NCBI GenBank assembly: GCA_054600435.1 | Contig: BAAIJX010000010.1 | Location: forward strand, 248,001 to 312,000 | Origin: Neophaeotheca triangularis | Taxonomy: Eukaryota | Length of the DNA: 64,000 bases | Direction: 5' to 3' | Shown: positions 40,690-62,409 of the stretch, piece by piece | How the letters are laid out: each line of letters starts with the position of its first letter | How positions within the stretch are numbered: position 1 is the stretch's first letter | The notes under the pieces: generated by a model | Seen by the model: the letters and a program-made list of their open reading frames with translations, nothing else | What the model was told of the DNA's origin: nothing | The model's database searches: none | Made by a program: the position numbers and the translations under genes

Positions 40690-41405
40690 GGTGTTTGTTT
40701 GGACTGCGGTGTTGGTTGCCCTCTTTGTCTTTCGTGGTGAAACAGTGTAGATGTGAGTGACTTGGAGTTGTGATCACCACCTGCACTTGTTGTTAATGGT
40801 GAGACCCGCGTCTTCACTCCGCGTCGGCTCGAGTAAGAGGTAAAGTTGATGTGTTTCACAAACCCATGCGCGCGACGGATCGCACCTTCCCGCTTGACGA
40901 TCTCGTGTCAGAAGTCTGGGGTAGGTAGTGAGCATATTGCGTGGCTCCCGATCGCGTGGCATGTCTCAACTGCGCCTAATCAGGGTGAAGTGAAATACCT
41001 GGAATACCAAAGAAACACAGCCAGGGAGACATTATTGCAGTCAATTGCGAGAAGAGGGTGTCCGATCTACCTACCTATTCCACTTCCACTTCCACTTCCA
41101 CCAACAGCTGTGACTACTCTACCAATTGCCATCCCGCCCATCTACACCTCACCGAATTTTCTTGGACGGGCTTTTACCCGGACCTCAAATCACTGCGGGC
41201 TCTTCAAGAAAATCACTGCCTGGCAGATAAGGGATCTCTTAACGGACCGGATACCAATCGTAGCACAAAAACGTACAACTGTGGTACACAAGAGGCGGGG
41301 GCTGGGGGCCTGAGAGGAAAGCCTCGTCAGATGGAGGACGAGGCGCTCCATACCACGCTGCATAGTGGTTAGTAGAGGGGTACAGAGTCTCTCTCTGGCA
41401 AAACA

Positions 41406-44400
41406 ATGGACTCCAGAGAGACCAGTGACGCGCCCTCTCCTGTCAGAGGGGTGTCGTCTTTAAGATCAAGATTTGAGAATCTTGGCAAGGATAGCGAAGC
41501 GCCTCCGAGCCCAGCAACGAGTACGCGACAATTCTCTTGGGGCTCGCAGGTCAGCAATAACACGGTGACCAATGGCAGACCGAGGACCTCTGCCGGGGAG
41601 GGCAGTGACGCGAGTGGGTTTTCAGCCCCAGGCGAAGCCCCTGCTGCTGCTGCGGTACCACAGCTCGCTGCCCCTCAACTTCGCAAACGTCCTGGCCTCA
41701 CACCTCCAAAGCCGAGACCGGAGTCCATGATTTCCGTAGTGCCTTCTCAGCAGTCACCGCCTATGGTGACAGTGAATTCTCCGCGGACACCTGCCGTTAA
41801 CTCTTCCGTTGACTTTCGCATGGCTGACACTTATGCTTCTACCGATTCTCCTGTCACTGCGTCTCGTACCGGGTCTCCCACACGAAGCAAATTCAAAGTC
41901 CCCAGTCAAGCTAGCACGCCGCTCCCTGAAGCACGCATGTCTGCTTTCTTCCCGTCAGAGCAGTCTCAAAGCAGTAGCGTCCCCCCGCAAATACCGATGG
42001 ACAGCAAGCCAAAACCTTCAAGTGGTCCACCACCTGTAAATAGAGCTGGCAAACCAGCGGTACCTAAGAAGCCATCCAACCTCGGAAAGCCTTCTGATGG
42101 TCTTTCTGCGCCAGAGCAAGCCGCTGAGCTCACGGATCACAGCGCGTCGCCTTTTCATACTCCCCCTAGTAGTGGGAACAACACCCCAGGGGAACGTAAA
42201 ACGGCCGAGCAGCGAAGCAGCGTCCATTCAGATGCTTCGTTTGTAGAAACCATCGCCGAGCGAGCGAGGGCAAACTCAAATGCATCCTGGGTAGAAAGAG
42301 TGCGAGGTGACTCCAATGCCTCGACCATGTCGTCTTCGTCATTGCCACGGGAAGGCTTTTTCCAACCGCCGCCTACTCATCATGCCGTGACTGCACGGAG
42401 AGAACAACAGGCAAACGACACCTCCAGAACTCCACCCATGAAGCCCTCACGCTACACACCCATGCATAGCAGAGATATGAGCGCTGCTGGGGATCTTCCC
42501 AGCAATCGGCCGTCGCTTCCCTCACGTCCAGAACTGCAGACTAGGGCACGACAGACGAGCCCGCGCAGAACAAGCCCCCGAAGAACAAGTCCTGGAAGAA
42601 CCAGCCCGGGTAAGCCACGCTCTGGCCGCACTAGTCCATTGAAGAAGGTCCTCAATCAGCAACCTTCTCATGGGCCGCCTAAGCGGACGAACACCTTTGG
42701 GGAATCAAGCACACCTCGAATACCGGCGACCAAAGCCCCTCAGAAATCGGCGCTCTCGCTCGGCTTTGACCGCGCAACGCAGGCACCAACGTCTACTGCA
42801 CCACCCGCCATTCCTGCTCCGAGAAGATCAATGGACCGTAGACTCCAGATACAGGCAGAAACACCACAAGCGGAGGCTCTCAAGCCACGAAGCCAGGATA
42901 ACACGCCTACGAATGCGACTAACGGCTCGCATGACGATATACCTGAGCCACCATTGTCAGGTCCTGGGCCAGCGGATTTTCCAGATTCATCTCACGCAAA
43001 TCGTCGGCCGCCCATGTACAAGCAGAGACCCTGGCAAATACCCACAGAATACGACACTAGGCTGTTTAGAGTGTGTGGCGAGATCGTCTGCACCACGGGT
43101 TACTTGACAAAGGCTTGGAATATGCGCACTGGCGAACAGCTTCTCAACATGGCGCATCATGAAAACGTCCGCGTGACTTCTCTGGCATTCAAACCTTCCG
43201 CCAGTGTGGATGATGAAGGTAAGCGTATATGGCTAGGTACTAGTATCGGTGAGATCCACGAAATCGACATACCTAGTCAGAGCCTTGTCAAGACTAAGAC
43301 GGGTGCTCACACACGGCGCGAAATTATCAAAATGTACCGGCATAGCTCTAGCCTCTGGACGCTCGACGATACTGGTGACTTGAGCGTCTGGAGAGCCGAT
43401 AGCAAGGGCATGCCGAGTCTCGACGCTCAGGCCGCGCACTTCCGCACCAAGCGAGGCCACAGCTTCTCCATAGCATGCGATGGGCATTTGTGGCTTGCCA
43501 CTGGCAAGGAGGTCCGGGTCTACCTGCCGAGTGCAAAATCTGATGAAGAGTTCAATGTGTTGAAAGAACCATTGACGCAGCACAACACGAGCGACATCAC
43601 TTCTGGAGCGACTATCAGCAGCAAGCCAGATTTGATCTACTTCGGTCATGGAGACGGCAAGGTCAGCATCTACGACCGCCGCAACTTCTCGTGTGTTGCT
43701 GTCGCGAATGTCAGTCTGTACAAGATCAGCTCCATGGCAGGCGTCGGCGACTACCTGTGGGCTGGTTACAACACGGGCATGGCATACGTGTACGACACCT
43801 CTGTGACGCCGTGGCGTGTGAAGAAAGACTGGCAAGCACACGACAAGCAGATATGTGGCATGATCGCCGATCAGTCTGCTGCGTGGAAGTTGGACCGCTT
43901 GCAAGTCGTCTCGCTGGGAACAGATAACATGCTTCGCATTTGGGACGGCATGCTTGAACAGGATTGGATCGAATCACAAATGCAGCAGCACGACTCTGAA
44001 TACTGCTCATTCCGCGAGATATCAGCTGCGGTGCTGACGTGGAATGCTGGCGCCAGTAAGCCTGGACAGCTGCAGTACACGAAAGAAGACGATAACTTCT
44101 TCCGAAAATACCTGACAGCGCAACAGGAGCCGCCTGATGTCTTCGTGTTCGGGTTCCAAGAGCTAGTTGACCTCGAAGACAAGAAGGTCACAGCCAAGTC
44201 CTTCTTCAAAAGCAAAAGCAAAGCCGCTGGCGAGCCGGAACACATGAGCCACCAATACCGCGCCTGGCGCGACTATCTGACCCGAAGTCTCGAAGACCAT
44301 ATGCCCTCGGATACTCCCTACACACTCCTACACACGGCCAATATGGTCGGTCTATTCACCTGCGTCTTCGTCAAAAGCTCCGAACGCACCCACATCCGGC

Positions 44401-45310
44401 ACGTTCACACCTCCGAAGTCAAACGCGGAATGGGCGGTCTTCACGGCAACAAAGGCGCCCTGATCATGCGTCTCGTCCTCGACGACAGCAGCGTGTGCTT
44501 CATAAACTGCCACTTGGCAGCCGGGCAAACGCAAACCATCAACCGCAACAACGACATCGCAGCCATCCTCGAAGCCGAAACTCTACCCACTTTCCCACTC
44601 TCCCAAACCAGCGCTGCCGCCCACTCGGACGTCTTCACCTCGGGCGGCGATGGCTCCATGGTACTCGATCACGAAATCTGCATCCTCAACGGCGACCTCA
44701 ATTACCGTATAGACACCATGGGCCGCGACACGGTCGTCAAGCACATTGCGCAACGCAACCTGCCACGCCTGCTCGACCGCGACCAACTGCTACTTTCGCG
44801 CAAGAAAAACCCGGGTTTCCGCCTCCGTGCTTTCCGCGAAAACGACATCACTTTCCCGCCGACGTACAAGTACAATGTCAACAGCGACGACTACGACACC
44901 AGCGAGAAGAGGCGCGCGCCTGCTTGGTGCGATCGTATTTTGTACAGAGGGTTGGGTAAGGTGCGGTGCGTGGATTATAGAAGGTGGGAGGATTTACGCA
45001 TCAGTGATCACAGACCCGTCAGCGGTTTCTTCAGGTTGAGGGTCAAGAGCGTGAATGTGGAGAGCAGGCGGGTGGCGTGGGAGAGGTGTTTGAAAGAGTT
45101 TGAGGCTGTAAGGGGGAGGGTTTGGCGTGAGGTGCAGTGAGTTCGATCCCTTTGTTGATCCCTTCCTTTTTTTTTTTTTTTTTTGGTCTTTCTCTTCTTT
45201 GAGCGGCGGTTGCTAACTTGTATTGCAGACTTGATTACTTGACCAATACGTTTGGTTTGTCGAAGGAGACAGCCATGGCGGCGCTCAAGGGGCAGACGGA
45301 TCCGTATTAG
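41406..45310 (+). CDS. Inositol polyphosphate 5-phosphatase with Pro-rich N-terminus and WD40-like beta-propeller; intron 45137-45228
   Basis: TWNAGA, FGFQELV, GNKGA, NCHLAAG, GDLNYRI, FPPTYKY, PAWCDRILY, SDHRPV; last exon QLDYLTNTFG..Y*. Confidence 0.92.
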
Positions 45311-45764: not shown

Positions 45765-46667
45765 ATGTCCACCCGCATATTCACACCCCGTCTCCTAACC
45801 ACTACAACCAAAAATCTCGCCCGCACAAGCATCCCCCAGCAGTCCAGTAAAATAGCTGCCGCCAGAGCTACCCAAACCCTCCGTTTCTTCAGCACCACTC
45901 CCACAAGAATGGACCCCAACGAAGCCAAAGGCCAGTCAGTGCCGGGCAAGGACGAATGGAAGCAGCGCGCACCCTACCGCATTCATGAGCCCAACGAGGG
46001 CTTCAAGACTCGCTACGAGGCCAGCTGCCATTGCGGCAAGGTCAAGTACCAGCTAAGCCGTGAAGAGCCTCTCGACTCCAAGCTCTGCCATTGCACCACA
46101 TGCCAGACTCAGCATGGTGAGTAGCTCTTATCATGCCATTGGCTTTCACACCCAATGTGAAACAGATTGCTGATGCGTATTCCTAGCCGCCCCTTTCCAA
46201 TGGGCCGCCATCTTCCACAAAGACGACATCAACTTCCTGCACGGCCACCACAACCTCGAATGGTACGACCCGACTGAGAAGAGCATCGAGCACAAGCTCC
46301 CTTGCAAAGTGCGCTGCGACTTCTGCCATTCGCCCATCATGGACGAGGGCCGCAACATGATCTTGCTCTTCCCCAGTCTCGTGCACTTGAAGACGGATGA
46401 GGACAAGGCGAACTTCAAGCCCAGGTTAGTATTGTCCCCTCTGGCTCGGACATCGTGATCGTTGTTGCTGATGTTTTCGGTGTCTGTAGATGCCACATGT
46501 TTTACGGTCAGCGCGTGATGGATATCCCCGATGGTCTGCCCAAGTGGTCCGGCTTGAACCAAGACAGCGAGTTGATCGAAGACAGCCCACCGGAGATGGT
46601 CAAGGAGCACCAGAGGAAGATGGAGAAACAACGTGAAGAGAAGTTCAACAAGGGCGAGAACCAGTAA
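45765..46667 (+). CDS. GFA / CENP-V (Mss4-like) zinc-binding protein; introns 46117-46186 and 46425-46489
   Basis: ASCHCG.V, CHCTTCQ..H, CDFCHSPI, P.CHMFY. Confidence 0.88.
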
Positions 46668-47451
46668 GGGCTGTGCTGCGTAGCAGTCACTTTTGGTGAT
46701 ACTAGCACCGATTAAGTCGGCGGGGCTTATGTGGTTTATGTGGGTTGAGTTGAGCGTCGGCGTTGTGAGTGGTATGGCATGATTAAATGGTTTGTGGTCC
46801 TGCGAGGGCTCGCCAACAGTGCGAGGGTTGCACGATTCCTTGCTATCGAAGAACGCTAGGTACAGTGTTCATCCGAATTGTACTAAAACACTCATCAGAT
46901 ACATCATGTCTTGTTTCACTTGTGCGCTATCGTCAGACTTCACTTTCCAGTGATGGCTTCTTATTGTGGTAGTAGGTAGCTGCTTTTATCAGTAATTGCT
47001 TGCCACTGAATGCCTTTCGAGCACTTTCAAATTACTACTTGAGCCTTCATAAACCAGCCAACTTGACTCGATACTACTCCATGATACTTGCTTCCTTGCC
47101 AACACAAAAGACTAACTGTCGACAAGCATAACTCCATTGCTAAACTCCACAACATCATCGGGGTACCTAGCTAGGTACTACCTTGGGCCTCCACACCTTC
47201 ATCTTCTTACTTCAGGAACCTGGAAGTCTCCACAACCAAAGAAAGCCTTCTCCCAATTGGGCAAAGCCCGCCAAGCCAAACCCTCGACACGACATCTCGA
47301 CTTCACCACCACAGTGAGTTCCCGACGCGCCCAACACCGCGTACGTAGATTGAAACGCGATTGCCAATCTCAAAAATTCAATCGCAGGCAGATGACATGC
47401 ACTAAAATCTTACAATGGCAGTTTTCGTGGTTGTGATAGCCGCCGGCCAGG

Positions 47452-50400
47452 ATGCCTAAACGCAAGCGCGGCCAGGCACAAAGTCTCTCGAGTACAGCTC
47501 CTAAGAAAAGACGTGGTAGACGTAAGTATAGCCCCCCCAGCGCGCCAATACCATCCACTGCATTATCACCAGGTGTCGCGCTCGCTCCATCAATTACTAA
47601 CAACCTCGTCAATAGCAAGCAACTCACCCCCCTCGCCACCAGCACAACATCCCCACGGCGACATCGACGCCGACCGCGAGTACAAACTCCGCAATATCCT
47701 CAACGAAACCAGCACCCACTACCTTATCGACTGGGAAGACGACACCGAGACCGGCGAGAGTTTCGATCCTTCGTGGGAACCCAAGGAGAACGCGAACCCG
47801 GAAGCCGTCGCTGACTGGGAGAACGTCAAAGCTGCTAAATCCGCTTCCCGGAGGATTGCAAGTGCGTCGCCTGCGGTTGAGGGTGCGAGTGCGCCGTCGA
47901 ATAAACGGCTGAAGCGCGGTAGGCTTAGGAAGCGGGTTGTGGAGAGCTCGCCTGAACCTGTTTTCACTGCTAGGCGCGACGAGGACGACGACGAGGAGGC
48001 TGCGCCAGTAGCAATCTGGGAACCGGAAGCCGAGCAGGAGCTTCTGGAGATTGGCGAGTCCCAGCACGCTACTGCAGGCGCCGAGCGTGAAGTCACAGGG
48101 AACCAGAGTCCGCTTTTTGTCTCTCGAGACGTTTCGCCTGTGCCGTCACGGAAATCGCCGCGTGCCAGTGCTACCGTCCAGGTTTCTGATCCTCCTTCGA
48201 GCTTTGCTGCTGGTGATTACGAGCGCTTTAGCTTGAGCCAGAGGAAGGGACACGAGGGTTCGCAATCCGTGGGAGACTCCGCGCAGACGTTCCAGAATCG
48301 AGGAGAAGCCGCTCTTGACACTTCTACTTCTGCCACTGCTGCAGAGCCCCACGCTCAGGAGAAGCCGGAGCAATCGCAACAACCTATAAACACCGCCACC
48401 GCCAACAACAGCAACGCAATCACTGATTCCTCCACTTCTGGCATCGTAGTTCAGCAAGAAAGGAAATCTCCAGAACCATCCCAATACATTCCCGACCACG
48501 CGGATACCTCCAAGGAAACTACCGACACTTCGGCGAATCCCACGACACCGAGCCAGCAAATTCAGACCGAGCTTGAGGTTGGCGAGACTGTCGTTACTAC
48601 CGTTCCCGATTCACAGAGTTTGCCTGATTCACAGAGTTTCGTGCCCAAGTCTACACAGGGAGAGACAAGTGGCGAGACTAGTGGGGAAAACCAGTTGAAA
48701 GGTACCCTATCAGAAGAGCAAATCGCCACCCAGAATATTCAGGCCTCTGAAGTAGAAGCCGCACCTTCCACGCAAAGGGTACAAGAGTCTTCACAAGTGG
48801 TAAACGTGCCTCCAACACTTTTCGAGAATTCAGCTCGGTCGCAAGATTCACGGGAAACATCCGACAAACAACAGCCTTCGCAGCAAGTGCCGCCTAGATC
48901 CACCGCCGACGAGATCGACGACTTCTTCGCCGGCGCTATCAGTAGCACCAACCCAGCAGACCTCCACAAGCCCGCATCACAGCAGGAATCTCATAGCGGT
49001 CTAATTGAAACAGAGACTGCCAAAGAACCAGGTCAGCAATCTTCAGAGGAAGGTGCAGAAAACGCTGTTGGTGATCGCTCGGAAGAGGAGCGGCCTACCG
49101 TACCTGAAAAGCAATCTCAGCAAAGTGACTCGCAGGATCTGTACCGTACATCTGTGCCCCCAAGGCAACGATCTCGCTCGCCCCAAACTCAGACCGAGCC
49201 TCAAAGCCAGGAGAGCCATAGTAGTACACAACAAGAAAACAGAGAGCCACTAAAGGATCCGCCTGCTCCTTGGGGCTTCTTCAGACAATTCCATAATCGC
49301 GATTCTGATAAAGCTCCAACCGCGAGCAGTGACCAAACGGTTGCAAGCGTCCAGAGCGATCCGGCCCCGACAAGCTTCCAGAAGCAGAACGATAGTCAGG
49401 CTTTGGACGTATCGAACCTTCAAAGGAACAGCGATAGGAATCCCATTTCGATTTCCAGCGGGCAACCCACCAGCAGTGAAAGTATCAACGAGCGTATTGC
49501 TGCTTCGATAGCATCAGGCACGGTTTCTGGCCCTCACAGTCAAGCCGTTCCGCCGGAGCCTGAGCAGCAAAAATCTGTCGAGGTCACAAGGCAGCATCTA
49601 CCAAGCCAGTCTCAGGGTGCAAACTACGCTGCTGCTGCTGACATCAACGGTCGTCAGATCAACAGGCAAGACGACCAATCGAGAGGCTCAGAGGATAACA
49701 CGGACTCTTCGGCCTTTCCCTTCATCACTCAGATAGGGGTGCATCACGGCGAGACACCTGCTGAGCGTCGAGCTCTGTTTCTAGGACGCAACCATCAGCC
49801 GTTCCCGTTTGCGCGGCAGCAAAAGCAACACCCCCCCTCGGATATCCCTCTCCACGGTTCAAGCCAACCGCAACCTGCTGCTGGCTCATCTATACAACTT
49901 TCCAGCCCCTTTCCATCGTTCCCGACCCATTCACCGCCAACGTTTGGTGAAAGCGCGCCGCCTCGTCCACAAACACCGTCGACGCCTGACCTCGAAAACA
50001 TGCAGTCTTCGCCGCAGACAGGTGAGCCTAAGCTTTCACTCACAGCGAAGATCAATCGCATGCGTGAAGCTCGACGCAGCGAGACACAGGCCCGACTTGG
50101 CGAAACACCCAATGCCGCCGCACAGACCCCTTCCGAGCCTGTCCGCCCTAACGCCGTTCCCGAAAGGCTAACCTCTCCAGCTCCTTCCGCGTTGCCTGCG
50201 CGTCTCACCTCGCCTGCACCTGCTGAAGGAGCGCGCTCGCCTTCTGCAGTTCCTGTCATGGAGCCTCTACCAGTGATTTCACAAGAAGACCAGACCACGT
50301 CCGAACGGTATTACACCCTTCTACCTGAAGCGCATGGGAACGGTGAGGACACCAGAATTCGCAACGGCAACTCCACCTTTCAACAAAATTTCGACACAAC

Positions 50401-52402
50401 CGATACCACAATGGCTGAGCCGGAGCCTCAATCGGGCAGCAAATTCCACGTCGTGCCGATTGCCATGATAGGCCATCAGCGCGATCACTATCCCCAAACG
50501 GTCTATTACGGGAAAGAACTGGTTAAACGCTTCACCGCGACCGAAGCTCCCGATGAGGCTCTAATGCAAGAGGCCGAAGAGTTCGTCATGCGAATCAAGC
50601 GCATAGTCAACCACCCGGACCTCGATAACCGAGAGGCCATGACGCAATACGATGTATCTCCTGAGCAGCAAGCCGAGTGGTCTATCCATTGCAGTGCCAA
50701 GTTCAAATTTCTGAGCGAGCTTATCAGCGGTTTCAAAGCCAAGTATCCGAGTTCGGACTTCAAGGTTGTTCTTCTTGCAAGCTCTTCGGTTCTGGCCACC
50801 ATGCTTTTCAATCACTGCAAGACCTTGCCAGCCCACACGCATCTCGAGCTGGATGAGGAAGAGCATGAATCACAGATCGAGGGCTCTGGTAATATCACGG
50901 TCCACGTGTCCTCCGTCCCTGAGCCACAGTGCATCAAGACCGACGGCGCGGATCTCTTGATTGCTTTTGATGATGGCTTAGAGGATGTTTCTGTCGTTAG
51001 ACAGCTAGACGGGTATGCGCTGCGCCGCGATATCCGCCTCGTCCTTCAGCTCGTAGTTCCTCGTTCTGTTGAGCATATCGAGCGTCGACTTGCTCCCTCT
51101 CTGTCTGCTCGTGCACGCCTTCACGCACTACTCAGCGGAATCTTTAGACTTCGCTCTGAGGCTGGTAGGCTCGAGGAAGATCAGGTTCCCCCTAAAGAAG
51201 CGGCAGCGGCTATTGTGGACTACATGCTTGCGGATGGTGAGGCGTCCGCAGAATGGCCTCTCGCTACCCTCAGTCGTCTCGATCAGCTTGACAGCCAGAC
51301 TGAGAGCGAGCTGGAGCCTCAGACATCTGAGATCGTTGGGAGTGCTGAATCGCAAGAGATGGCTCACACTGGCGTGAAGAGGGGATTCGACACGGCGAAC
51401 ATGGGGGTGATGGACTCGGATCCGAACAAAAGAGCACGTACAGACATGGCTTCAGTGACGAACAACGCCGCGATGCCTGTCACCATTAATCCTGCAGAGC
51501 TGGATATCACACATGTCAGCGACTCTGTCGACAAGCCAACCCAAGGGAACTTACTCACCTCTTCAATACCGCCCTTCCCCTCTGACACCGAGAGGCGTTT
51601 GAGAAAGCTGCTCAAAGAGACACAAGATCGGCTTGACGAACATGTCAAAGCCATGAGCGAGCTGCAGTACCGCCACGAAGATCAGCGCAACGAGATGGTC
51701 GAAGCATGCACCGACCGTGACAACATCACGGAATCGGCAGCTAGAGCCATGAACCGTGTGCAAGAGCAAGACGAAGTCCTCAAAGCACTCCGTATCGAGC
51801 GTAACGAGCTCAAGACCAAGCTTCTAGAAGCTGACGAGCGTCTCCTCTCCCACTCCGTCCCAGAGCGCGCTGAGCTTGAAGCCCTCCGCATTGCCAAAGA
51901 CAAAGCGCAAGCGGAAACTGAACGCCTGCAGACGCGCCTCGAAAGCGCAAACGGCGAACTCGAGTACATGCGCACCATGTACCAAGACACGTCTTCCAAA
52001 GCGCAAGCCCTAGCCCAGCAGAACGGGCAATTGGAAAACGAGCTCGCCATCGCCCAAAACAAGGCCACGGGCACGCAGGTCGCGCTGAAGCAAATGAGCC
52101 AAGACACATTGACGAAGAGACTCCGCGCGGAGAACAAGAAACTCGCCGCCGCGATCGCAAACCGCGAAGCCGGGCTCAAGACCCGCGACGAGGAGATTGC
52201 GAGGCTGAAGGAGGCGAGCCGCGGAAGAATGGGGACGAGAGCTACGAGCGTGCCCCGGAGTCCTAGACTCGGCAGTCCGTTGAAGGCCGCGACGAGCGGG
52301 AGCGGCGGTAATGGAGGCAGCGCGAGTCGCCAGGGTAGTCCGAGCGCTAGTGAGTTAAGAGGTCGTGCTGGCCCTGGCTTGCATCCTTTGCGGAATGGTT
52401 AG
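47452..52402 (+). CDS. AT-hook + chromodomain + HDA2/3-like + coiled-coil chromatin protein; intron 47522-47615 (short isoform)
   Basis: Chromo-like YKLRNILNE..HYLIDWE..SWEPKENANPEAVADWE; HPDL..CSAKFKFLSELI resembling the HDA2/3 family; long heptad region; intron GTAAGT..TACTAAC..TAG. Confidence 0.75.
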
Positions 52403-52445
52403 ACTGGTTGAAGATTGGAGAATGCTGACATTGTGTTTCTGGTAG

Positions 52446-52963
52446 GTTCAACTTCTTCTTCTTCTTCCGCCGATGAAGTGCCGGCGGTTGCTCATGAGGA
52501 CGTTTCTTCTGACTATACAGGCACTGGCTCCCCCTCCCCTTCCGACTCGGACAACGACAACGACAACTACAACGAGCACGAGAACGAAAACGAAAGCGAA
52601 GACGAAGAGGAAGACGCCCCCTCCGGCTCCACCACCACCAAACCCCAGAAGAAAGAAGCACGCTTTAGCGTCAGTTCCCCCGCCACCGTTGCCATTGCCA
52701 CTGCCACTGCCACTGCCACTGCCCCCAAGCCCCGCCCCCGACCTCGCGGCCGCCAGCCAGCCACTGACGCTTCTAGCAAAAGCCATGCCTGCCAGCTTTG
52801 CCCGCGCAATTTTGGCCGAGCTGAACATCTCAAGCGCCATGTTGCGACCTTGCATACTGGTGCTAAACCTCACAAATGCGGTGTTTGTGGGAGGGATTTT
52901 TCTAGGGCGGATAATTTGGCGCAGCATGTGCGGACTTTGCATGAGGGTGGTGGGGGGGTTTAG
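52446..52963 (+). CDS. Terminal exon with two Msn2/Seb1-type C2H2 zinc fingers, splice-joined to the upstream gene via intron 52398-52445
   Basis: RGRQ..SKSHACQLCPRNFGRAEHLKRHVATLHTGAKPHKCGVCGRDFSRADNLAQHVRTLH; no in-frame ATG; intron GTTAGA..GCTGAC..TAG keeps the frame. Confidence 0.7.
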
Positions 52964-55309
52964 AGCGTTGAGGGTTTTAATAGATGAGGCATAGGGGGTG
53001 GCAGTGGAAGTCAATAGTCAGAGGATGGCGGCGGTGTTTGGTGTGGGGAGAGTGCGGTTGGTGCGTGAAGGAGAAGAGACGGAATGAGTGAGAAAGGCAG
53101 TGGGTTGGAAGTGTCATTGCTACTTTATGTAGCCACACTATGGAAAGCGCTGTTGATTCGCAAGGCTTTTGCTGCAGTATAGTTTAAACTATTGGTAAGT
53201 GCACCCCTATAAACTATTGTACAACTACTCTGGACTACTCTGCTTCAGGATGTCAGAGCCATCGGTCTCTAGTAATCCCAAAGCTTGGCGGTGCTCCATT
53301 AGCAGCGCTTCCGTTTCAGGCTTCCTCAGCACTACAACACATTAACACCTTAATAGGGCCAAGCACCTCTACCACTAGGATAGCGGCGGTGATAGTCTGC
53401 CCTGCAACTTAACAACGTGTGTCCTACAACAAGTTACGAACTAACACTGGTAATTTTCTTTGATTTCACACCGCTTTATCGGGTTTTCGTACTGACTTGA
53501 CGCAATCTCAGGGGTTTTGTGAACCCTGCTTGTGGAAGGGGCACTGTGTACCAGACTTTCACATTCGGTATCCATCGACCCTCCGGTGGAACTCGCACTC
53601 TTGCGGAAGAGGTCTAGATCCATTGCAACTCCAGAGACAAGAGTCACACTCCCAGCTCTATCTCCGCAACATTGCCACCGGTTCGAAAAGGCATTTGGTA
53701 TCAATTCGCCAAACAAGCCGCATAACATCACCTTTTGAAGTGCAACGGCGGTCTCCATTCTCGAATGCGCGCCATAGCAGCCTTGACGAAAGCCTTGGTG
53801 ATACTTTCCTCATCTCGTACAATTACTTCTGCGCCTCTCCGCAACGTAAAAACATCTACAAACACCATAAAGCGTGAACATGCCTGTCAAAGTCCGAGCC
53901 CAGTCGCTAGCCAAGGAGAACGCCAGACCTCGTGAGGACGATCTACATTTTCTGTTCCTGACCTTGCCGGCGGAGTGCATACGGAATTGGACTCACACCG
54001 TCAACACCGACTACAGGTGCGTCCTCAAAGCACGGAACCCTTTTTACATCATGCTGGACGTTGGCTTCCGACTCGAGTCAATCGAGGCTCTTCCACCTAC
54101 AACACCCAAAGACGCAACCCGTGCCACCTCCGTTATGGTATCGCATCACATCATAAGCATCATGGCTAGGCAAGCGTGGATTTTCAGAAACGAGATAAAT
54201 ACCGATCGCGAGCTTGGTATCCCCATTTGTAAGATGCATTGACCTGAATGATGAGACAGTTGGAAGCGGGCATCAGCCAAAGGGACGCTAGAAAGGAAGA
54301 CCGTACCAAAATGGCTTGAGTTCGGGATATTGGGAAGTTGGGAACAGACTAAGGCTGGACACTTAGCGAAGCGGGCGAACTGACGAATGTTCTGGAAACT
54401 GATCAATGTCACTGAGACGCGGGTTCAAGATGAAGAAGGGTCTGATAGAGTTTGTTGCAGCGGCATACATTTCTTTTGTGCCTCATAGACGGGGCAATAA
54501 TGAAATACTCGTCTGGATGCAAATTGGCTCTGGAAAAGACAGCAACTAGCCCAAGCGTGATACAAGTATCTTTACCGTCATTCAATCACACTGAAATGCC
54601 GGTCGGATCGATTGCCTGCGTGGTTTACTCGCCCTCCCTAGCTTGTAGATTGAAAGTCTTCTTTTGCAAAGCAGAATGAGTGCAACTGCAGAGGGCTACC
54701 GGGAAGAAATAGAGTCGCCGTTGTTTGTGGGTTTGCATCAGAAAAGAAGTTGGCAGCGCGCAAGGACAGAAGTGGTTGCTTTTGCCAATGGCAAGGCTCA
54801 ACAGAAGGTCAAGAGTGGAAATGAAGAAAGAAGAGCGACAAGGAAAAGTTGAGAGAAGACTCGCAAGAGTGAAAGCGAGGCTTCTAAAGTGTTCAAGCAG
54901 AAGACTGGTGAGTAGAAGTTGAGAAAGGAGGCGAGAAAGAAGTAGTAGTGCACAAGTATGATTTCCATTCGCTACTCCGCCAACCGCTCAGTCCTGTAAA
55001 CCAGAGCAGTCGGCAGAAGGCAGCTTTCAAATCTAGATACTGTGCATAAGGAGCGACTACAGTCAGTCGGAGAGCAAAACACATCAAGTCATGGAGAGAA
55101 GGAGGAGAGCCTGATTCTCTCCTGGGTCCTTCTCCTTCAGATCAATCCATCACTGCTTCCCATCACAACTTCCATCCCAAACAAAAATCGAAAAATCCCC
55201 CAAATTGTTCCAGTGGGCTCGTTCGCGGAAAAGACCAGCAGTCCCGGTACTAGAGTCGTGGTAGCGTTGGGGGTGGCTTCGTGGAGCCTCGTGTCGTCGG
55301 TAGAGTAGT

Positions 55310-55949
55310 TTACCAGACCGAGGAGGCGACCTTGGCCTGGGCTGCGGGGGCAGCCTCGGCACCACCGTAGGCAGCAACGGCCTCGGTGAAGTCGCCGTCG
55401 ATCTTCTTGAGTGCGGCCTGGCCGTCGGTCTTGGTGTCCGCGGCGGCGATGCCGATGTAGCTCTCACCAAGGGCGTTGGTCTTCTCGCGGAGCGAGTTGA
55501 TGTCCTTGGTGGCTTTGCCCTTCAGGTTGGACCCGTCGAAGGCATCCTGCTTCTCAACCATCATGTCGAGCGTTCCGGCAATGCTGGGCTCGAGCGTGGT
55601 GTTGATGTAGTTGATGAGCGAGTTGGAGTCCTCGCTGGAGAGCTCCTCGGAAGACTTAGCGTTCTCGCTGGCGGTCTCGATGCTCTTCTCGAGCTTGCTC
55701 TCAGCAGACTCAACAGGGATGGCAGAGACGAGGCCACCGCCGTACTGAGGAGTTGGAAGTTAGCTTTGCCATCGAGATAGTTGTGCTGCGAATGCGTACC
55801 TTGTTGACCGCTTCGGTCAACTGAGTAAGGTCGGAGTTGATCGTCTTCAGGTCAGAAGCGATGGTCTGGACATCGCGGCGGAGGACAGCAGCGCTGACGG
55901 CGGTGGAGACGCTCAAGGCGGAAAGGATGACGTTCTTGACGGAAGGCAT
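55310..55949 (-). CDS. Secreted HsbA / cell-wall mannoprotein family protein; intron 55745-55799
   Basis: Signal peptide, dibasic RR site, helical DVQTIASDL.TI..L..L..AV.., KIDGDFTEAVAAY; strong codon bias. Confidence 0.8.
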
Positions 55950-57859
55950 TTTTGTTTGTTTTTGAAGTTTGGCTCGGTCAACGAGTTGAAAAGCGAAAAG
56001 TGATAAAGAAGAGAGTGAAAGAGTTGAAAGAAGTGCTTGATTGAATTGAAAGTTGTGTTTGTCTGGCCAGAAGAAGATTTGGGATTTACCGGGCAGGCTG
56101 GTTCTCTTTATACTTGACGGTGAGGTCCAACGCTTGGCAGCGACCTCTCACCGCCAGGTCCTTCTGACTCGTCCAAGTCTATACACTTCGCCGCAGCAAA
56201 GCATCTATTGTTTCGTCCTTGCATCACGAAGGATGGTGTTGCGGACGGAGGACCCTAGTTCGGTCGCAAGCAACGTCTCGCTAGTGTTGCGCAAGGACTA
56301 GACTGTGTCATGAACAATGAGTTCAACGGTGGCCGTTCGGGATCTGCAAGTAAGCATTTGGGGTCTCCGCAGACTATCTTGCGGCGGGTGGTTTGGTACA
56401 CCGCTACTTCGACATTCGGGGACCATGTTACTCCAGTACTATGTCAACTTCACCAGTGGCAACTGTAGCTGCCGGAGGGGGCGCCGGAGGCTCGATGCAG
56501 CTGCAGCGGTTCTCCTTGAATGGCTACCTTTACGAACGGAACTGGCCACCAGAGTTTGCCAGTCTCGTTCTGATACTTGGGAAGCAAACCAAGAAGCTTC
56601 ACAGAATCACAAGCCGTATCAAGAATGTCTCGAAGCTGCAACATGCTGACTCAACACGACCTCACCAAAGCCTCGCAGCTCCGCGGACCGCAGCCAAACA
56701 TCCCCCAAGCCTCCACATGGCCAGTTCTCGTGATACCATGGTGGGAGCTTTCGTCTCGAGGAGGGACCTTTTCGAAGCTTCTCAGTGGATCTCGCCACGA
56801 TGGGAGAGTCAGGAAGAGGGTCTGCACGGGTTTGTCGAGCACACGCCAGGCTGCTTTTCAGACTGCAAAACATCAGCGGAAGGCTTGGTTGGAGAGGGGG
56901 TCTAACGAGGCCAGAAGCGGTCTGGATAAGCGTTTAGAAGCGTGGGGCCGGGTGCATCAGGCGATGGCCAAAGCGCTGGAGAGCGCACCGTGCTGAAGCA
57001 CCCATGATGCCGATTGCGTGAATGGATCCACTACTGGAATATCTCTCGCCATCCGTTTGATCATGGCAGCGCCAGGCGCGCCAGAAGTACGTTCCAGAGA
57101 GCTCCATTTGCTGCATTCTGAGTATCGGAGTTCGGTCGGCTGATTAAAACATAGCGGTGAAGCAGGAACCTCGAACTCTATTGTTAAAGCGTGGCTGCAG
57201 CGAGTCAGTATGTAAGCATTTTAAGGTCATGGGCCTTGACTCAGCAGCAGTCTGGGCCAAGTTCTCGCTATTTTGTGAGACAATGGTGGAGCAGTGCGAG
57301 CGTGGAGGCACGGGAGGTTGAAATAGAGTTTAAAGCCCCCGACCACTGCCCGAGTGGATGGCTTGGCAAGGAGCCTGAGGCAGCCCTGGAGCAGCGATTG
57401 ATGCTACCTCCGGACGTACTTTCTACAAGACTATCGGAGCACCGGAGGTAGGTACGATTTTTTGGGCAGGTCACGGGCCTGATTTGCGGGATTTTGGGTA
57501 CTGCCGGCTGTGGTGGGAATTCATCGTATGTCGCTAGCTGACCGACCCCGACCGTGTGGCGTTGAAGACAGCGCTCGCAGGCGTCGACTATACGTGGCGA
57601 GAGCAGGTTGCGGAACCACAGCTCATGACCTTGCCTTATTACTCCGGTGTTTTCCGTTCTTCCACGGAAGCCCTGCCGTTCGAGGTTGGGACAAGGGAAC
57701 CCGCTAACCAGTGGATATTCAGTGCATCTTGATCGTAAGCATACAGCTTCGCATTGTGCTCGGGATATAGTACACCATGCATGTAGCAGCTCTTCCCGCT
57801 GAAGCCAACGCCATGCTATGCGCGCCACGCCACGCCCCTGGTCCCAACTACGACCCCAT

Positions 57860-58817
57860 CTACTCAGGTTGACCGCCCTCACCAGCTGGCCGGCTAGCAA
57901 GTACGCTCTCCGGTCCCTGGGCAGCCGGTGCGCCAGCACCACCAGCAGCACCGCCCCTACCAGCTCTCCTCTGGTTCGCCTCAGCATCCTTCTCTGTGTT
58001 GATCTTGTCCACAATCTTCTCAATGTCCTCGCTTGCGAGCATCTCCACTCCCTTGCCCGGAGCCATGATGGCGATTTCGATGTTCTTGGCGCCGGTTTGA
58101 ACGACCTCGAGTAGGGATTTGATGGCCAGCTCGATTGTAGCGGAACGGTCCATGTCGTCTTTGTGGTTGCGTTCGAGGAACTCACGGACGGTCTTAGAAG
58201 AGCGGCCGATGGCGTTTGCCTTCCTGTAGCGGATGTTAGCTCGCAGTTCTTCGTACGATCTTCTCTTCCTGTCACTCTTACCATGCGCTGTAGATACCAC
58301 TGGGCTCCGTCTGATACAGCCTAGGCTGCTTGCTTCCCGGGTCAAAGCCAACCACCAAAGTACTGATACCAAACGGCCTCACACCACCACTTTGTGTGTA
58401 CCTCTGCTGCACACCAGCAGTGTACTTGGTAATGTACTCGATCGTACAAGGATCCTCAACAGTGAGACGATGCGATTGTGCTTCGAGACGAGCCTTGTCC
58501 ACCAGGATGCGGGCGTCTGCGTTGAGACCGGCGAATGCGAGGCAGACGTGCGTGTCGACTAACGAGAGCTTTGAGGGTGTGATGCGGGTGTCTTGGAGCT
58601 TCATCGCGGACTTCTTCTCGCAGCCTAGCACTACTATGTCACTGCCTTTGACTCCTACGGCGCATGTGCCACGCTTGACTGCTTCGAGGGCATATTCGAC
58701 TTGAAAGACGTGTCCGTCGGGAGAGAAGACTGAGACCGCAGTGTTAGTGTCGACTTCTCGAGCTCCTCACTCGCAGCTGATGTGCATACCTGAAAGGGCG
58801 CGATCGTAGCCGGACAT
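57860..58817 (-). CDS. PRE6: 20S proteasome subunit alpha 4 (PSMA7); two introns
   Basis: [67 protein letters not shown]. Confidence 0.95.
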
Positions 58818-59918
58818 GTTGAATCTATCTCGGAGCCGGGTGGCTCACTCCTGCTGCTTCGGGTATCTGCTGAATTGTTGCTATGGTACGGATTGTGCGG
58901 CGAGGGAGGGTTCAGATGTACGGTGGTTCGATCCGTGACAGGTAGAGAGCTTCGCGGGCGGATGGTTGTTGAATGGTTGTCAGTTCGATGTTTCGAGATG
59001 AGGTGAAGCTCCTCCCAGGCTGCGAGTTGACGCGCGAGGCAAACGAGCTCCTGGCTTCCGGGAAGGTTTGCCGAGGGAGCTCTGCTACCCAAACCCATAC
59101 CCTAGGACACCTGGTGTCGTTGATGAAACGGGGTTAGGAGGTCTAGGTATATTTGCTCTGTTAATGAGGTATACTTATTGGTGAATGCGACGCCTGTGAT
59201 GGCCTTTAAGATCGTTAACACATCTCTTACCACTATCACACATTTATGTCATGTGCTTTCTGGAGGTTGAAATGAGCTTTGAAGCGGTTGCGGTACCCGA
59301 TAAACAAACACTCGCACATCAACTGTAGCAATGATGGGTTCAGACAACGACCAGGCCATCGAGCACGAGGGACAGCGTGAATACAAAGAAGCTTATGGAG
59401 CTCACCACAGAGCCACGCACATCACAAGCTAAACAATACGTCTCCGCGTCTGCACTCTCTCATATCAACGACCCTCACGAGGCACAACACGTCTCGAAGA
59501 GAAAGAAACAAAGAAGAGAGTACCTAATACAGCCTAACATACCCCCACCGTCCCCAGGGTATCATCCCCGAAAAAGAGTACAGCCCCTTCCTCTCAACGA
59601 ATGCACCCGCGCAGCCACCGGCCAGAAGAAAAAGAACGCAACTCAACAGCCCACATTTGACCTTGTTTGTTGTCGGAATGATTGTTGTTGTCAAGAATGA
59701 AACTCCCCCATTATAGCCGACCCACCAGCCGACGCCTTCGCTAAACCTCAACCCTTTGTGGCCATACGTTGTGGTATGGCCCCCAGCCAGCGCCGTCGCT
59801 AAGGTTATGTCGAGCTTCTTTCCCCATTGCCTCTGCTATCACCACTGCATTCCCATATGTTCTAGAATTTTCAATGCCCGTCTTGTTATGTAGACAGATT
59901 GTCGATCAGCTACTCTCC

Positions 59919-62409
59919 TTACTGGGGGGACTTGGCACCACCCTGACCGTTGCGACGGTCGCCGTCATTGCCGAGACCAAGGTTGCCCATGCCAGTGTTG
60001 AGGAAGGACAAGTTGAGGTCAGCGCCGCCGTCGTTGCCGCTGTATCCAGCGTTGCCGTAGCCGGAGTTGCCATAAGAAGCGCCGTTGGGGTAACCAGGAG
60101 CGCCGCTTGCGGCCGACTGGTTGCCCTGGTTGAAGGCCTGTTCGGCACGGCTGTCGAACCCACCAGCGTTGGCCTGCATACCGCTAGAGTAGCCGCCAGC
60201 CATGTAAGGGCTAGGAGCGCCCAGACCGGAAGGAAGAGCGTAGGTCGATGGGGGACCGCCGTAGTTCTGACCGTCGTAGCCGCCCGGGGGACCGCCCATG
60301 CCGCTGTTGCCACCATAACCACTCTGAGAGCTTGGGCCCATCCCACCGTAGCTGCTACCACCCATGGAACCACCACCGTAACCACCAGCGCCACCGCCAG
60401 GTGGACCATAGTTGTTGCCGGGAAACTGCTGCATGCCACCTTCCGCAACAACAGCGGCGTTGCTCCTGGAAGCACCGCACCTCAAGCATGATACGTTCTT
60501 GGCGAAGTTGTGGTAGGCGCAGCCTTCGTTGCCGCACTTCCAATCTCCAGCCCTGAATGGAACAATGCCACCGCGGCTGCTAGAAGAACCTCCCATTCCA
60601 CCCATGCCACCACCGTATCCGCCACCATGCATGTGAGGTGGTCCACCCATCATACCAGGGTGGTTGCCGTAACCGCCACCGTAAGGACCATGCTGCATAC
60701 CGTATCCACCGCTGCTGTAGGGGTCAGCTGGGCCGGCACCCATGGCCGGGAAGGAGCAACGGAAGCATGCTGTGCGACGCTGAAAGTTGCTGAAACCGCA
60801 GCTTGGGCAGGTCCAGTCACCAGGACGAGGCCTGTTCTTGGACGGGGGGAACGGAGTGAGGAGCGGTGGACCACCTGGTGGGTGGGAGCCTGCGGCGCGG
60901 TCAAGCACTCTGGAGGAGGAAGGCGAAACCTCGATCGCGCGGTCGTTGAGTGCGCGTCCGTTCATGCTAAGAGACTCAGCAGCCTGGAAGAGATTGTTAG
61001 CTCGGCCTCAGTCTGTGTAGAACTGTACTCGAGTAGTGACGAGCTGTGGCGTATTCTTTGTTTTTACAGAGGCGCCGCAAATCAAATTTGAAGGAAACAG
61101 ACCGCACTTTGACCCCCTGTCAAGATCAGGAAGACATGACGTCAAGTGTCGGACGATCGGTTGCATTGCCGACACCAAGCAAAAAGTACCTCAAAGCAGG
61201 AGTAATTAAAAGTAGAAAAAAAGCGTTGACGAGAGAAAGCAAGGGAAATCGCGAAAACTGACCTCTTCATGACCGCCAAAAACAACAAAGCCGCTGCCGC
61301 TCGGCTTTCCGCCCTCGGGCGTGCGGAGTGTCCAGAAAGCAATCGGGCGACCTCCATACTGAGTGAACCAAGATTCCAATTCACTTTGGGTCGTGTCGTG
61401 AGGAAGACCGCTCAAGTGGAGGACCTTGGAACGCTCGGCAAGGAATGCCCTAACGTCGCTACGAGCATCGAGAGGCCGAGTCATGACATCCATGTCACCC
61501 TGGGGGTTCGTCTGAGAAGGACGCGACTTCTGGACAAGCGAGCGAAGGCATCGAGTCAGAGTCAGAGCCTCCTCGAGAGCGCGGCGCGGCGAGGATGGCG
61601 CGAGTGCCTGCAAGTGGAAGGGCAGACCTCCAGTGACTTTGCCGGAGGAGCGGACCTCCTCGACCTCAAGACCGGCGCAGATGGACGATAGGCTAGATGA
61701 GCTGAAAGCCAGGGTCTCGGGGTGGTGAGACTGGAAGGTCTGGTACTCGCCGCGAAGGCCGAACAGCACTGGGTGCTGAAGGTATGGGGGGAGCACAACG
61801 TTCTTGTCGCGAGCCTCACGGGGCAGCTGCACACGAAGATCCCATGGCGTCAAGGTGACGAAAGCGAACGTTGGAGGCGCGCCAGGTCCCGCATCCTTGG
61901 GCACAAGGTGCTCACTAGCATAGGCATCGAAAGCCGCAATGGCATCGCGGAAGCTGCCAGCTTGACGGACGTGCTCCCAAGTGAGAGTGGTCAGGGAAGT
62001 GCACAGGGGCGTGATCGGCGTGTTGACGGGCTTGACGAGGACGGACTGGTGGTGGAGCTGCGGAGAGATTAATGAGCCATCACTATAATACGTTTACCGC
62101 AGAAATACATACCTCCGGAAGGGCAGGGTCCCTCGCATCCACAACAGTCCAGCCGAGCTCGATAACCTCTGCGCTGTCCTTGGTTACGTAGACGCCGTGC
62201 TCATCGCAGGTAGTAGCGATGTGAATGATGCAGTACTTGTCGAACTGCGGCGGCTGGGAAGCCGCCGTGGGAGGGTATTGGCCTTGAGCAGACTGGCTTT
62301 GGCGAGATTCAGTACCGTAGGGCGCTGGTGCACCGCTTTGTGGGCCCGCGGAGCCTGGGGTTGGGTATGGGTTGCCCTGGTAAGGCTGGGCTTGGGTGGG
62401 AGTTGCCAT
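59919..62409 (-). CDS. NRP1: RNA-binding protein (exonuclease-like N-terminal domain, RRM, two RanBP2 zinc fingers, Gly/Tyr-rich tail); introns 62058-62112 and 60984-61262
   Basis: ATTCDEHGVYVTKDSAEVIE, LSGLPHDTTQSELESWF, RPGDWTCPSCGFSNFQRRTACFRC, RAGDWKCGNEGCAYHNFAKNVSCLRC. Confidence 0.88.

Follow-up and report, generated by a model that had tools for sequence, protein, structure and literature searches.

A lineage-specific zinc-finger tail behind the conserved stop codon of a CDP-2-like gene of Neophaeotheca triangularis, and its possible use as an optional 3' extension

The locus described here raises the question of whether the product of a conserved chromatin-related gene can be joined to a pair of zinc fingers by the splicing of a very small intron that carries its stop codon. 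The locus lies in a stretch of 64,000 nucleotides (nt) from Neophaeotheca triangularis (GenBank assembly GCA_054600435.1, contig BAAIJX010000010.1, positions 248,001 to 312,000 of the forward strand), which is called the window below and whose first letter is position 1. A long open reading frame (ORF) at 47396-52402 (+) encodes the protein referred to here as the scaffold, and behind its stop codon a second open stretch, ending at 52963, encodes two fingers of the C2H2 type. An initial annotation, made from the letters alone, had proposed that removal of a 48-nt intron fuses the two. The answer given by our data is more qualified. The data do not prove the fused protein, the one RNA observed speaks against the simple version of the proposal, and no single model fits all observations. 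The explanation that we prefer, which we regard as possible and stop short of calling probable, is an optional 3' extension of the scaffold gene under the control of two introns, the fingers being read only when the second of these, of 113 nt, is retained.

The long ORF is 100% identical to an annotated NCBI protein of N. triangularis (P0001, 1618 amino acids), whose length corresponds to exon 1 and exon 2 joined over a 94-nt intron and whose N-terminus matches that joint. A Pfam search places an HDA2-3 domain (PF11496) at ORF residues 1014-1265 with E = 1.1e-16 and 61.3 bits against a cut-off of 27. Of the label "chromo/HDA2-3-like" given to the protein in the initial annotation, the HDA2-3 part holds, and the chromo part stays below threshold, as the Pfam Chromo match of the N-terminus has E = 0.41 and scores 11 bits where 25.1 are required; the UniRef sources give orthologues the name "Chromo domain-containing protein". 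By sequence comparison the gene represents N. triangularis in a conserved family of Dothideomycetes whose members combine a chromo-like N-terminus with an HDA2-3 domain. No match was obtained when the C-terminal half of the scaffold was compared with PDB sequences.

The end of this family is well defined. In 101 of 109 homologues the C-terminus reads HPL[RKS] followed by at most eight residues, and 63 of these 101 have the exact ending HPLR[NQ][GSA]; in the other eight homologues the end looks truncated or divergent. Many of the 109 are plain ORF calls and as such blind to splicing, and the eukaryotic NCBI gene models end at the same place. Because the great majority, these models included, end there, TAG 52400-52402 can be taken from the alignment as the conserved natural stop of the family, with HPLRNG as the end of the default product. 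Whether orthologues end at HPLRNG or carry the fingers is one point on which the proposed fusion could be checked, and the result goes against it: the conserved stop weighs against a fusion, and neither a C2H2 pattern nor a finger Pfam domain was found in any of the 109.

At this conserved stop the DNA has several features of an intron. TAG 52400-52402 sits within a donor-like sequence, a G followed by GTTAGA with the GT at 52398, and a second stop, TGA 52409-52411, follows in the same frame. The sequence GCTGAC at 52424-52429 supplies a branch A at 52428, 17 nt ahead of an acceptor TAG that ends at 52445 and is followed by G. The interval 52398-52445 is 48 nt long, a multiple of three, and its excision carries the long ORF in frame through a further 172 codons to TAG 52961-52963. 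The initial annotation had described the stop within the donor, the branch and acceptor, the second stop and the in-frame fusion, and on each of these points its reading of the letters was right. The interval has GT-AG ends, its CTRAY branch stands at a distance of 10-40 nt from the acceptor, and its length is at least the fungal minimum; the 48-nt spacer itself is also intron-like, with a G+C content (GC) of 0.42 and with negative codon scores and stops in all three frames. Overlooked in the initial annotation was a second donor, GTGAGT at 52350, which has the perfect consensus, lies 48 nt upstream of GTTAGA and competes for the same acceptor at 52445; the candidate intron of 96 nt that results likewise leads in frame into a 172-codon extension. 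All four supported donors here have T at +6, and T or C at +3 does occur among them: a pyrimidine at +3 is used in this genome in GTTAGT at 46425, where the support is from homology, and in GTCAGT at 52670, where it is from RNA. The former, already pointed out in the initial annotation as a similar donor, is present and lies at the edge of a 65-nt interval that separates two conserved coding blocks in a neighbouring gene of the glutathione-dependent formaldehyde-activating (GFA) type. The stop-spanning configuration is beyond chance: among relatives, the same scan found no in-frame stop-spanning pseudo-intron in any of the 16 loci with over 200 nt of downstream sequence, and of 12 further ends of long ORFs in the window 3 have pseudo-introns, which open extensions of at most 40 codons, compared with 147-172 codons here.

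The tail behind the candidate introns encodes complete zinc fingers. Its 172-codon frame has no Met and is therefore enterable only from an upstream exon. The zf-C2H2 family (PF00096) matches with E = 2.7e-10 when the whole ORF is searched, and for the last 59 codons alone E is 1.7e-12 and the score 47.4 bits (cut-off 25.2); zf-H2C2_2 reaches 41.1 bits against a cut-off of 40, and a C2H2 regular expression matches at 52790 and 52877 only. Compared with solved fingers in the PDB the pair is canonical, as the eight zinc ligands, the hydrophobic core positions and the linker are all kept. The two intact C2H2 fingers and the acidic tract in a Met-less frame, as first described for this tail, are thus real features of it. 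The current annotation does not include 52403-52963. As a separate observation, three of the six frames over 52446-53017 (two on the plus and one on the minus strand) are open for at least 182 codons; this openness reflects the 3n-periodic simple repeats (TCT)n, (GACAAC)n and (GCCACT)n and is weak evidence of coding when taken alone.

The contigs of four sequencing runs (X1-X4, small shares of each run) were aligned to 47000-53600. One metatranscriptome contig (X4, record 12), exact over its 211 nt with 0 mismatches, joins 52550-52669 (120 nt) to 52783-52873 (91 nt), and so reveals a 113-nt GT-AG intron within the supposed finger-encoding exon, which the initial annotation had overlooked. The CTGAC branch of this intron stands 15 nt ahead of the acceptor, and its GC is 0.69 as against 0.42-0.52 in other introns here. 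A false join driven by repeats is excluded because no word longer than 6 nt is common to both sides of the 52669/52783 joint. The exact contig, the GT-AG ends and the CTGAC branch thus establish that the tail region is transcribed and spliced on the plus strand. As 113 is not divisible by three, the long-ORF frame stops in the spliced RNA 13 codons past the joint, ahead of the fingers; if the 113 nt stay in, the long ORF is linked to the fingers by either candidate intron, the 48-nt one or the 96-nt one (from GTGAGT at 52350). Once the 113 nt are removed, no donor was found that could credibly make this link; GTGCCC, GTTGAA and GTTAAG were considered for this and rejected as non-consensus. The idea that splicing is the route by which the fingers are expressed therefore survives only in part: the in-frame tail without Met and the intron-like spacer are in favour of it, and the RNA-supported intron moves the fingers out of frame. 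Elsewhere in the gene, 52136-52321 is covered by an exact or near-exact X1 contig and 49363-49516 by X4. Most contigs at 52537-52593 are simple repeats of other organisms with 2-4 mismatches and were set aside. RNA sequencing goes unmentioned in the available part of the genome note for the species.

The reading frame used on either side of this intron was examined by a codon log-likelihood built from 12 other long ORFs of the window and calibrated on the scaffold gene in 75-codon windows. In the calibration the true frame was the best in 61 of 61 windows, with a mean of +16.4 and a minimum of -1.0, and the off-frames never exceeded +1.6. For 52446-52669 the score is +33.0 in the frame of the long ORF, compared with -10.1 in the frame that contains ATG codons and -50.7 in the third, and both halves of the segment agree. 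The 113 nt at 52670-52782 score +7.4 in the long-ORF frame and the finger exon scores -5.5. The finger exon is also distinguished by its third positions, where C/(C+T) is 0.27 (27 T and 10 C) compared with 0.625 in the reference (p = 2e-5); the two segments ahead of it, 337 nt together, have 0.67-0.69 and thus no preference for T. From the codon scores we infer that translation of the acidic segment in the long-ORF frame took place in the past or continues. The usage in the finger exon suggests a different codon history for the fingers, which may reflect a different origin or relaxed selection. Any translation past 52402 is something that we infer.

The tail appears to be confined to this lineage. 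A metagenome scan gave 43 loci that hold relatives of the scaffold gene. When the finger peptide and both candidate upstream frames were used in tblastn, nothing was found 3' of the gene in the 23 closer loci, and no match came from tblastx of positions 52403-60000 of the window against all 43 loci. When the tail was used in word-based searches, one weak and two moderate matches appeared, none of them from N. triangularis; the moderate ones are P0111 (59%) and P0112 (65% identity), the latter a Ste12-like protein with an STE domain and with the nearest finger pair that these searches gave. A HMMER search with the tail over 1.84 billion representatives returned 87,682 matches, and the best 150 of these are all long poly-finger proteins with no recognisable orthologue among them; in the ESM Atlas only generic fungal C2H2 clusters were found. 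Judged by these comparisons the 172-codon tail is lineage-specific, and the 0.56-kilobase piece is probably the captured 3' part of a gene for a two-finger transcription factor. The absence of the tail beside the gene in relatives fits the recent capture suggested in the initial annotation.

Two distant loci, L024 and L025, gave weak C2H2 matches about 640 nt 3' of the gene. These fall in a separate ORF of 543 codons, whose fingers are of another kind, and were rejected as homologues of the tail. This ORF (L024 14296-15927 (+), and also L025 at about 1825-2004) has unusual C2H2-like fingers and represents a second case of a finger gene beside the scaffold gene. In L024, a distant relative (27% identity), the finger ORF lies about 260 nt past the scaffold stop on the same strand, and its sequence is unrelated to the tail.

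In the explanation that we prefer, the lineage-specific piece behind the stop would serve as an optional 3' extension of scaffold transcripts, read in two steps. Removal of a stop-containing mini-intron, either the 48-nt one from GTTAGA or the 96-nt one from GTGAGT, both with the acceptor at 52445, would open the acidic extension in frame. If the 113-nt coding-like intron were then removed as well, the extension would end 13 codons on and lack the fingers; if it were retained, the fingers would be joined to the scaffold. A fingers-fused protein is thus possible, but it needs two conditions that have not been observed, and it is expected to be a minor form at best. The existence of such an isoform would mean that the scaffold of a chromatin modifier had been caught in the course of acquiring targeting to specific DNA sequences through capture of a gene fragment and alternative splicing. 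We consider unlikely a fuller version, in which the CDP-2-like scaffold of a histone-deacetylase complex recently took up, in one black-yeast lineage, the C-terminal part of a stress-type C2H2 transcription factor and, by means of a stop-containing mini-intron and a frame-shifting exitron, ends in one of three ways (the conserved C-terminus, an acidic tail, or fingers predicted to bind specific DNA sequences), so that the deacetylase could be steered to specific promoters on demand.

Several observations weigh against the optional extension. Neither the 48-nt nor the 96-nt splice was seen, as no contig of the four runs covers 52322-52549, and the RNA is therefore silent on whether either occurs. 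The donor GTTAGA departs from the consensus GTRNGT by a T at +3 and an A at +6, and the use of GTGAGT instead would remove the last 16 conserved residues, that is, the conserved motif itself. The NCBI model of the N. triangularis gene stops at TAG 52400-52402, and no database protein of 100-2000 amino acids containing the tail was found by the word-based searches. In the spliced RNA the fingers fall in frame with a different ORF, which is open from 52446, has ATG codons at 52473 and 52494 and would encode about 119-126 amino acids, an arrangement equally compatible with a separate gene. The codon usage changes sharply between the finger exon and the segment that precedes it, which is odd for one translated unit, and the codon score leans partly on the 3n-periodic simple repeats. 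Finally, the evidence for the splice is a single 211-nt contig from a single metatranscriptome study, and its joint was read from the alignment table, the automatic listing of joints having omitted it since it spans (GCCACT)n.

The piece could instead be a transcribed relic, a recently formed remnant, with its 5' exons lost, of a zinc-finger gene that had been duplicated or truncated. It would lie in the 3' untranslated region (UTR) or the read-through region of the scaffold gene, contain a cryptic 113-nt splice and yield no protein past the stop. We rate this as somewhat unlikely, and it is the best placed of the alternatives. A finger frame without Met, unannotated, found in no database protein and absent 3' of the gene in relatives is what such a relic would leave, and the non-native codon usage of the finger exon and a splice that puts the coding-like segment and the fingers into different frames are in line with it; moreover, with three of six frames open for at least 182 codons, the openness is in part compositional. 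What a relic does not readily explain is that the fingers have kept all eight zinc ligands, the hydrophobic core and a canonical linker, that intron-like signals span the stop in frame here and in none of the 16 relatives, and that the codon statistics upstream, over 52446-52669, are excellent. If the finger isoform is absent, the locus would amount to a conserved gene of the ordinary kind with a transcribed piece of a gene behind it, and the lesson would be that plausible splice signals and a tail that is open in frame do not suffice as evidence, as one RNA contig shows an extra intron that changes the reading.

The frame into which the observed splice puts the fingers could also be that of a separate small gene, which would start within or just past the scaffold 3' end at ATG 52473 or 52494, lose the 113 nt by splicing and encode a two-finger protein of about 119-126 amino acids with a basic stretch before the fingers. 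In addition to the agreement between the splice and the ATG-containing ORF, the contig passes the joint without a branch, and the spliced form therefore dominates in that sample. We nevertheless find this distinctly unlikely. The ATG frame scores -10.1 over 74 codons against a calibration minimum of -1.0, both ATG codons have C at -3, and only 70 nt lie between the upstream stop and the ATG, which leaves no room for a promoter. The agreement of frames is a coincidence of one in three in a region, 52550-52669, where all frames are open, and the database searches gave no homologue of such a protein.

The one-step switch of the initial annotation, in which splicing of the 48 nt alone would produce the scaffold with fingers as the main alternative product and the 113 nt would be kept as coding sequence, now looks very unlikely. 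It is true that a single uninterrupted frame runs from 52446 to 52963 and that the 113 nt are coding-like in that frame (+7.4, GC 0.69). The only RNA here has the 113 nt removed, however, and the contig set holds no retained form; furthermore, the stronger GTGAGT competes for the acceptor and the codon usage changes sharply at the finger exon. A short transcript from an internal promoter in the last few hundred bases of the scaffold gene, whose translation would begin at an in-frame Met such as that at 52229, use the 48- or 96-nt splice and encode the conserved peptide with the acidic tract and possibly the fingers, shares the frame logic of the fusion and could account for the exact RNA contig over 52136-52321, but as this contig is equally explained by a full-length messenger RNA and nothing supports the isoform directly, we regard it as highly improbable.

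The optional extension can be compared with known systems at the level of architecture. The nearest counterparts of the long protein are yeast Hda2/Hda3 and Neurospora crassa CDP-2 (chromodomain protein 2), which serves the HDA-1 deacetylase complex as its scaffold. The HDA2-3 domain and the chromo-like N-terminal segment give the long protein a predicted arrangement that resembles that of CDP-2; unlike the proposed fused form, the relatives of CDP-2, Hda2 and Hda3 found here have no zinc fingers (0 of 109). In the available part of one account, the HCHC complex consists of HDA-1, CDP-2, HP1 and CHAP, CDP-2 links HP1 to HDA-1, and CHAP binds AT-rich DNA by AT hooks (PMC10349943). By analogy, DNA recognition for the deacetylase and its scaffold is in Neurospora the task of a separate gene product, CHAP, whereas here the fingers would be fused to the scaffold by splicing. 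No paper was found by a literature search that combined CDP-2, zinc finger, alternative splicing and histone deacetylase.

The tail itself can be compared with Msn2, Msn4 and Seb1, C2H2 factors that bind the STRE (AGGGG). It has two C-terminal fingers with the helix residues R-x-E-H-x-x-R and R-x-D-N-x-x-Q and with acidic and basic low-complexity sequence before them; these helix residues presumably match those of Msn2, which makes the Msn2/Seb1-type label a candidate one. Identical helix residues are also present in P0111 and in the STE-domain protein P0112 (65% identity), and the tail lacks an N-terminal part of its own. Exitrons are introns inside a coding exon that have coding potential themselves. 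The 113-nt intron is GC-rich, open and coding-like in the surrounding frame and is yet spliced in the RNA; it differs in that only the spliced form is seen here and in that its length is not a multiple of three. The features of the locus are collected in Table 1.

Table 1. Coordinates of the scaffold gene and of the features behind its stop codon (positions in the window)
Feature	Position	Strand	Remarks
Exon 1, CDP-2-like gene	47452..47521	+	ATG 47452; 23 codons and 1 nt; matches the N-terminus of P0001
Intron 1	47522..47615	+	94 nt; GTAAGT donor, TACTAAC branch, AG acceptor; fits the length of P0001
Exon 2, CDP-2-like gene	47616..52402	+	chromo-like N-terminal segment, HDA2-3, coiled-coil-like C-terminal part, HPLRNG, TAG 52400-52402
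Consensus donor GTGAGT	52350..52355	+	in conserved C-terminal codons (Ser-Glu); with acceptor 52445 an in-frame 96-nt candidate intron
48-nt candidate intron	52398..52445	+	GTTAGA donor, CTGAC 52425-52429, TAG acceptor; holds in-frame TAG and TGA
Ser-rich and acidic segment	52446..52669	+	coding-like in the long-ORF frame; another frame also open, with ATGs 52473 and 52494
113-nt GT-AG intron	52670..52782	+	GTCAGT donor, CTGAC 52764-52768, AAG acceptor; (GCCACT)n inside; RNA-supported
Two-finger C2H2 exon	52783..52963	+	both fingers C-x2-C-x12-H-x4-H, linker TGAKPHKC, end TAG 52961-52963; atypical codon usage
Covered stretch behind the finger stop	52974..53146	+	exact 173-nt contig of X2/X3 (records 9, 10), runs whose RNA nature is a guess; candidate 3' UTR

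On the 3' side of the tail, 52964-55300 is a region of about 2.3 kilobases without an ORF of 140 codons or more and with a GC of 0.46-0.51, in which unannotated transcripts are possible; it is followed by a minus-strand gene at about 55310-56150. On the 5' side, the GFA-type gene, which is Cys-rich, lies at 45900-46670 (+) and has two short introns, at about 46117-46186 (GTGAGT) and at 46425-46489 (GTTAGT). It stands directly 5' of the scaffold gene in many relatives, including the distant L024, so that the gene pair is conserved. Further upstream, at 41376-45140 (+), a 1254-codon ORF with a long disordered N-terminus and a beta-propeller-like middle resembles by eye an inositol polyphosphate 5-phosphatase. 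This ORF is syntenic with the GFA-type and scaffold genes in relatives in varying orientation, and the synteny of the GFA-type and inositol phosphatase genes extends even to L024.

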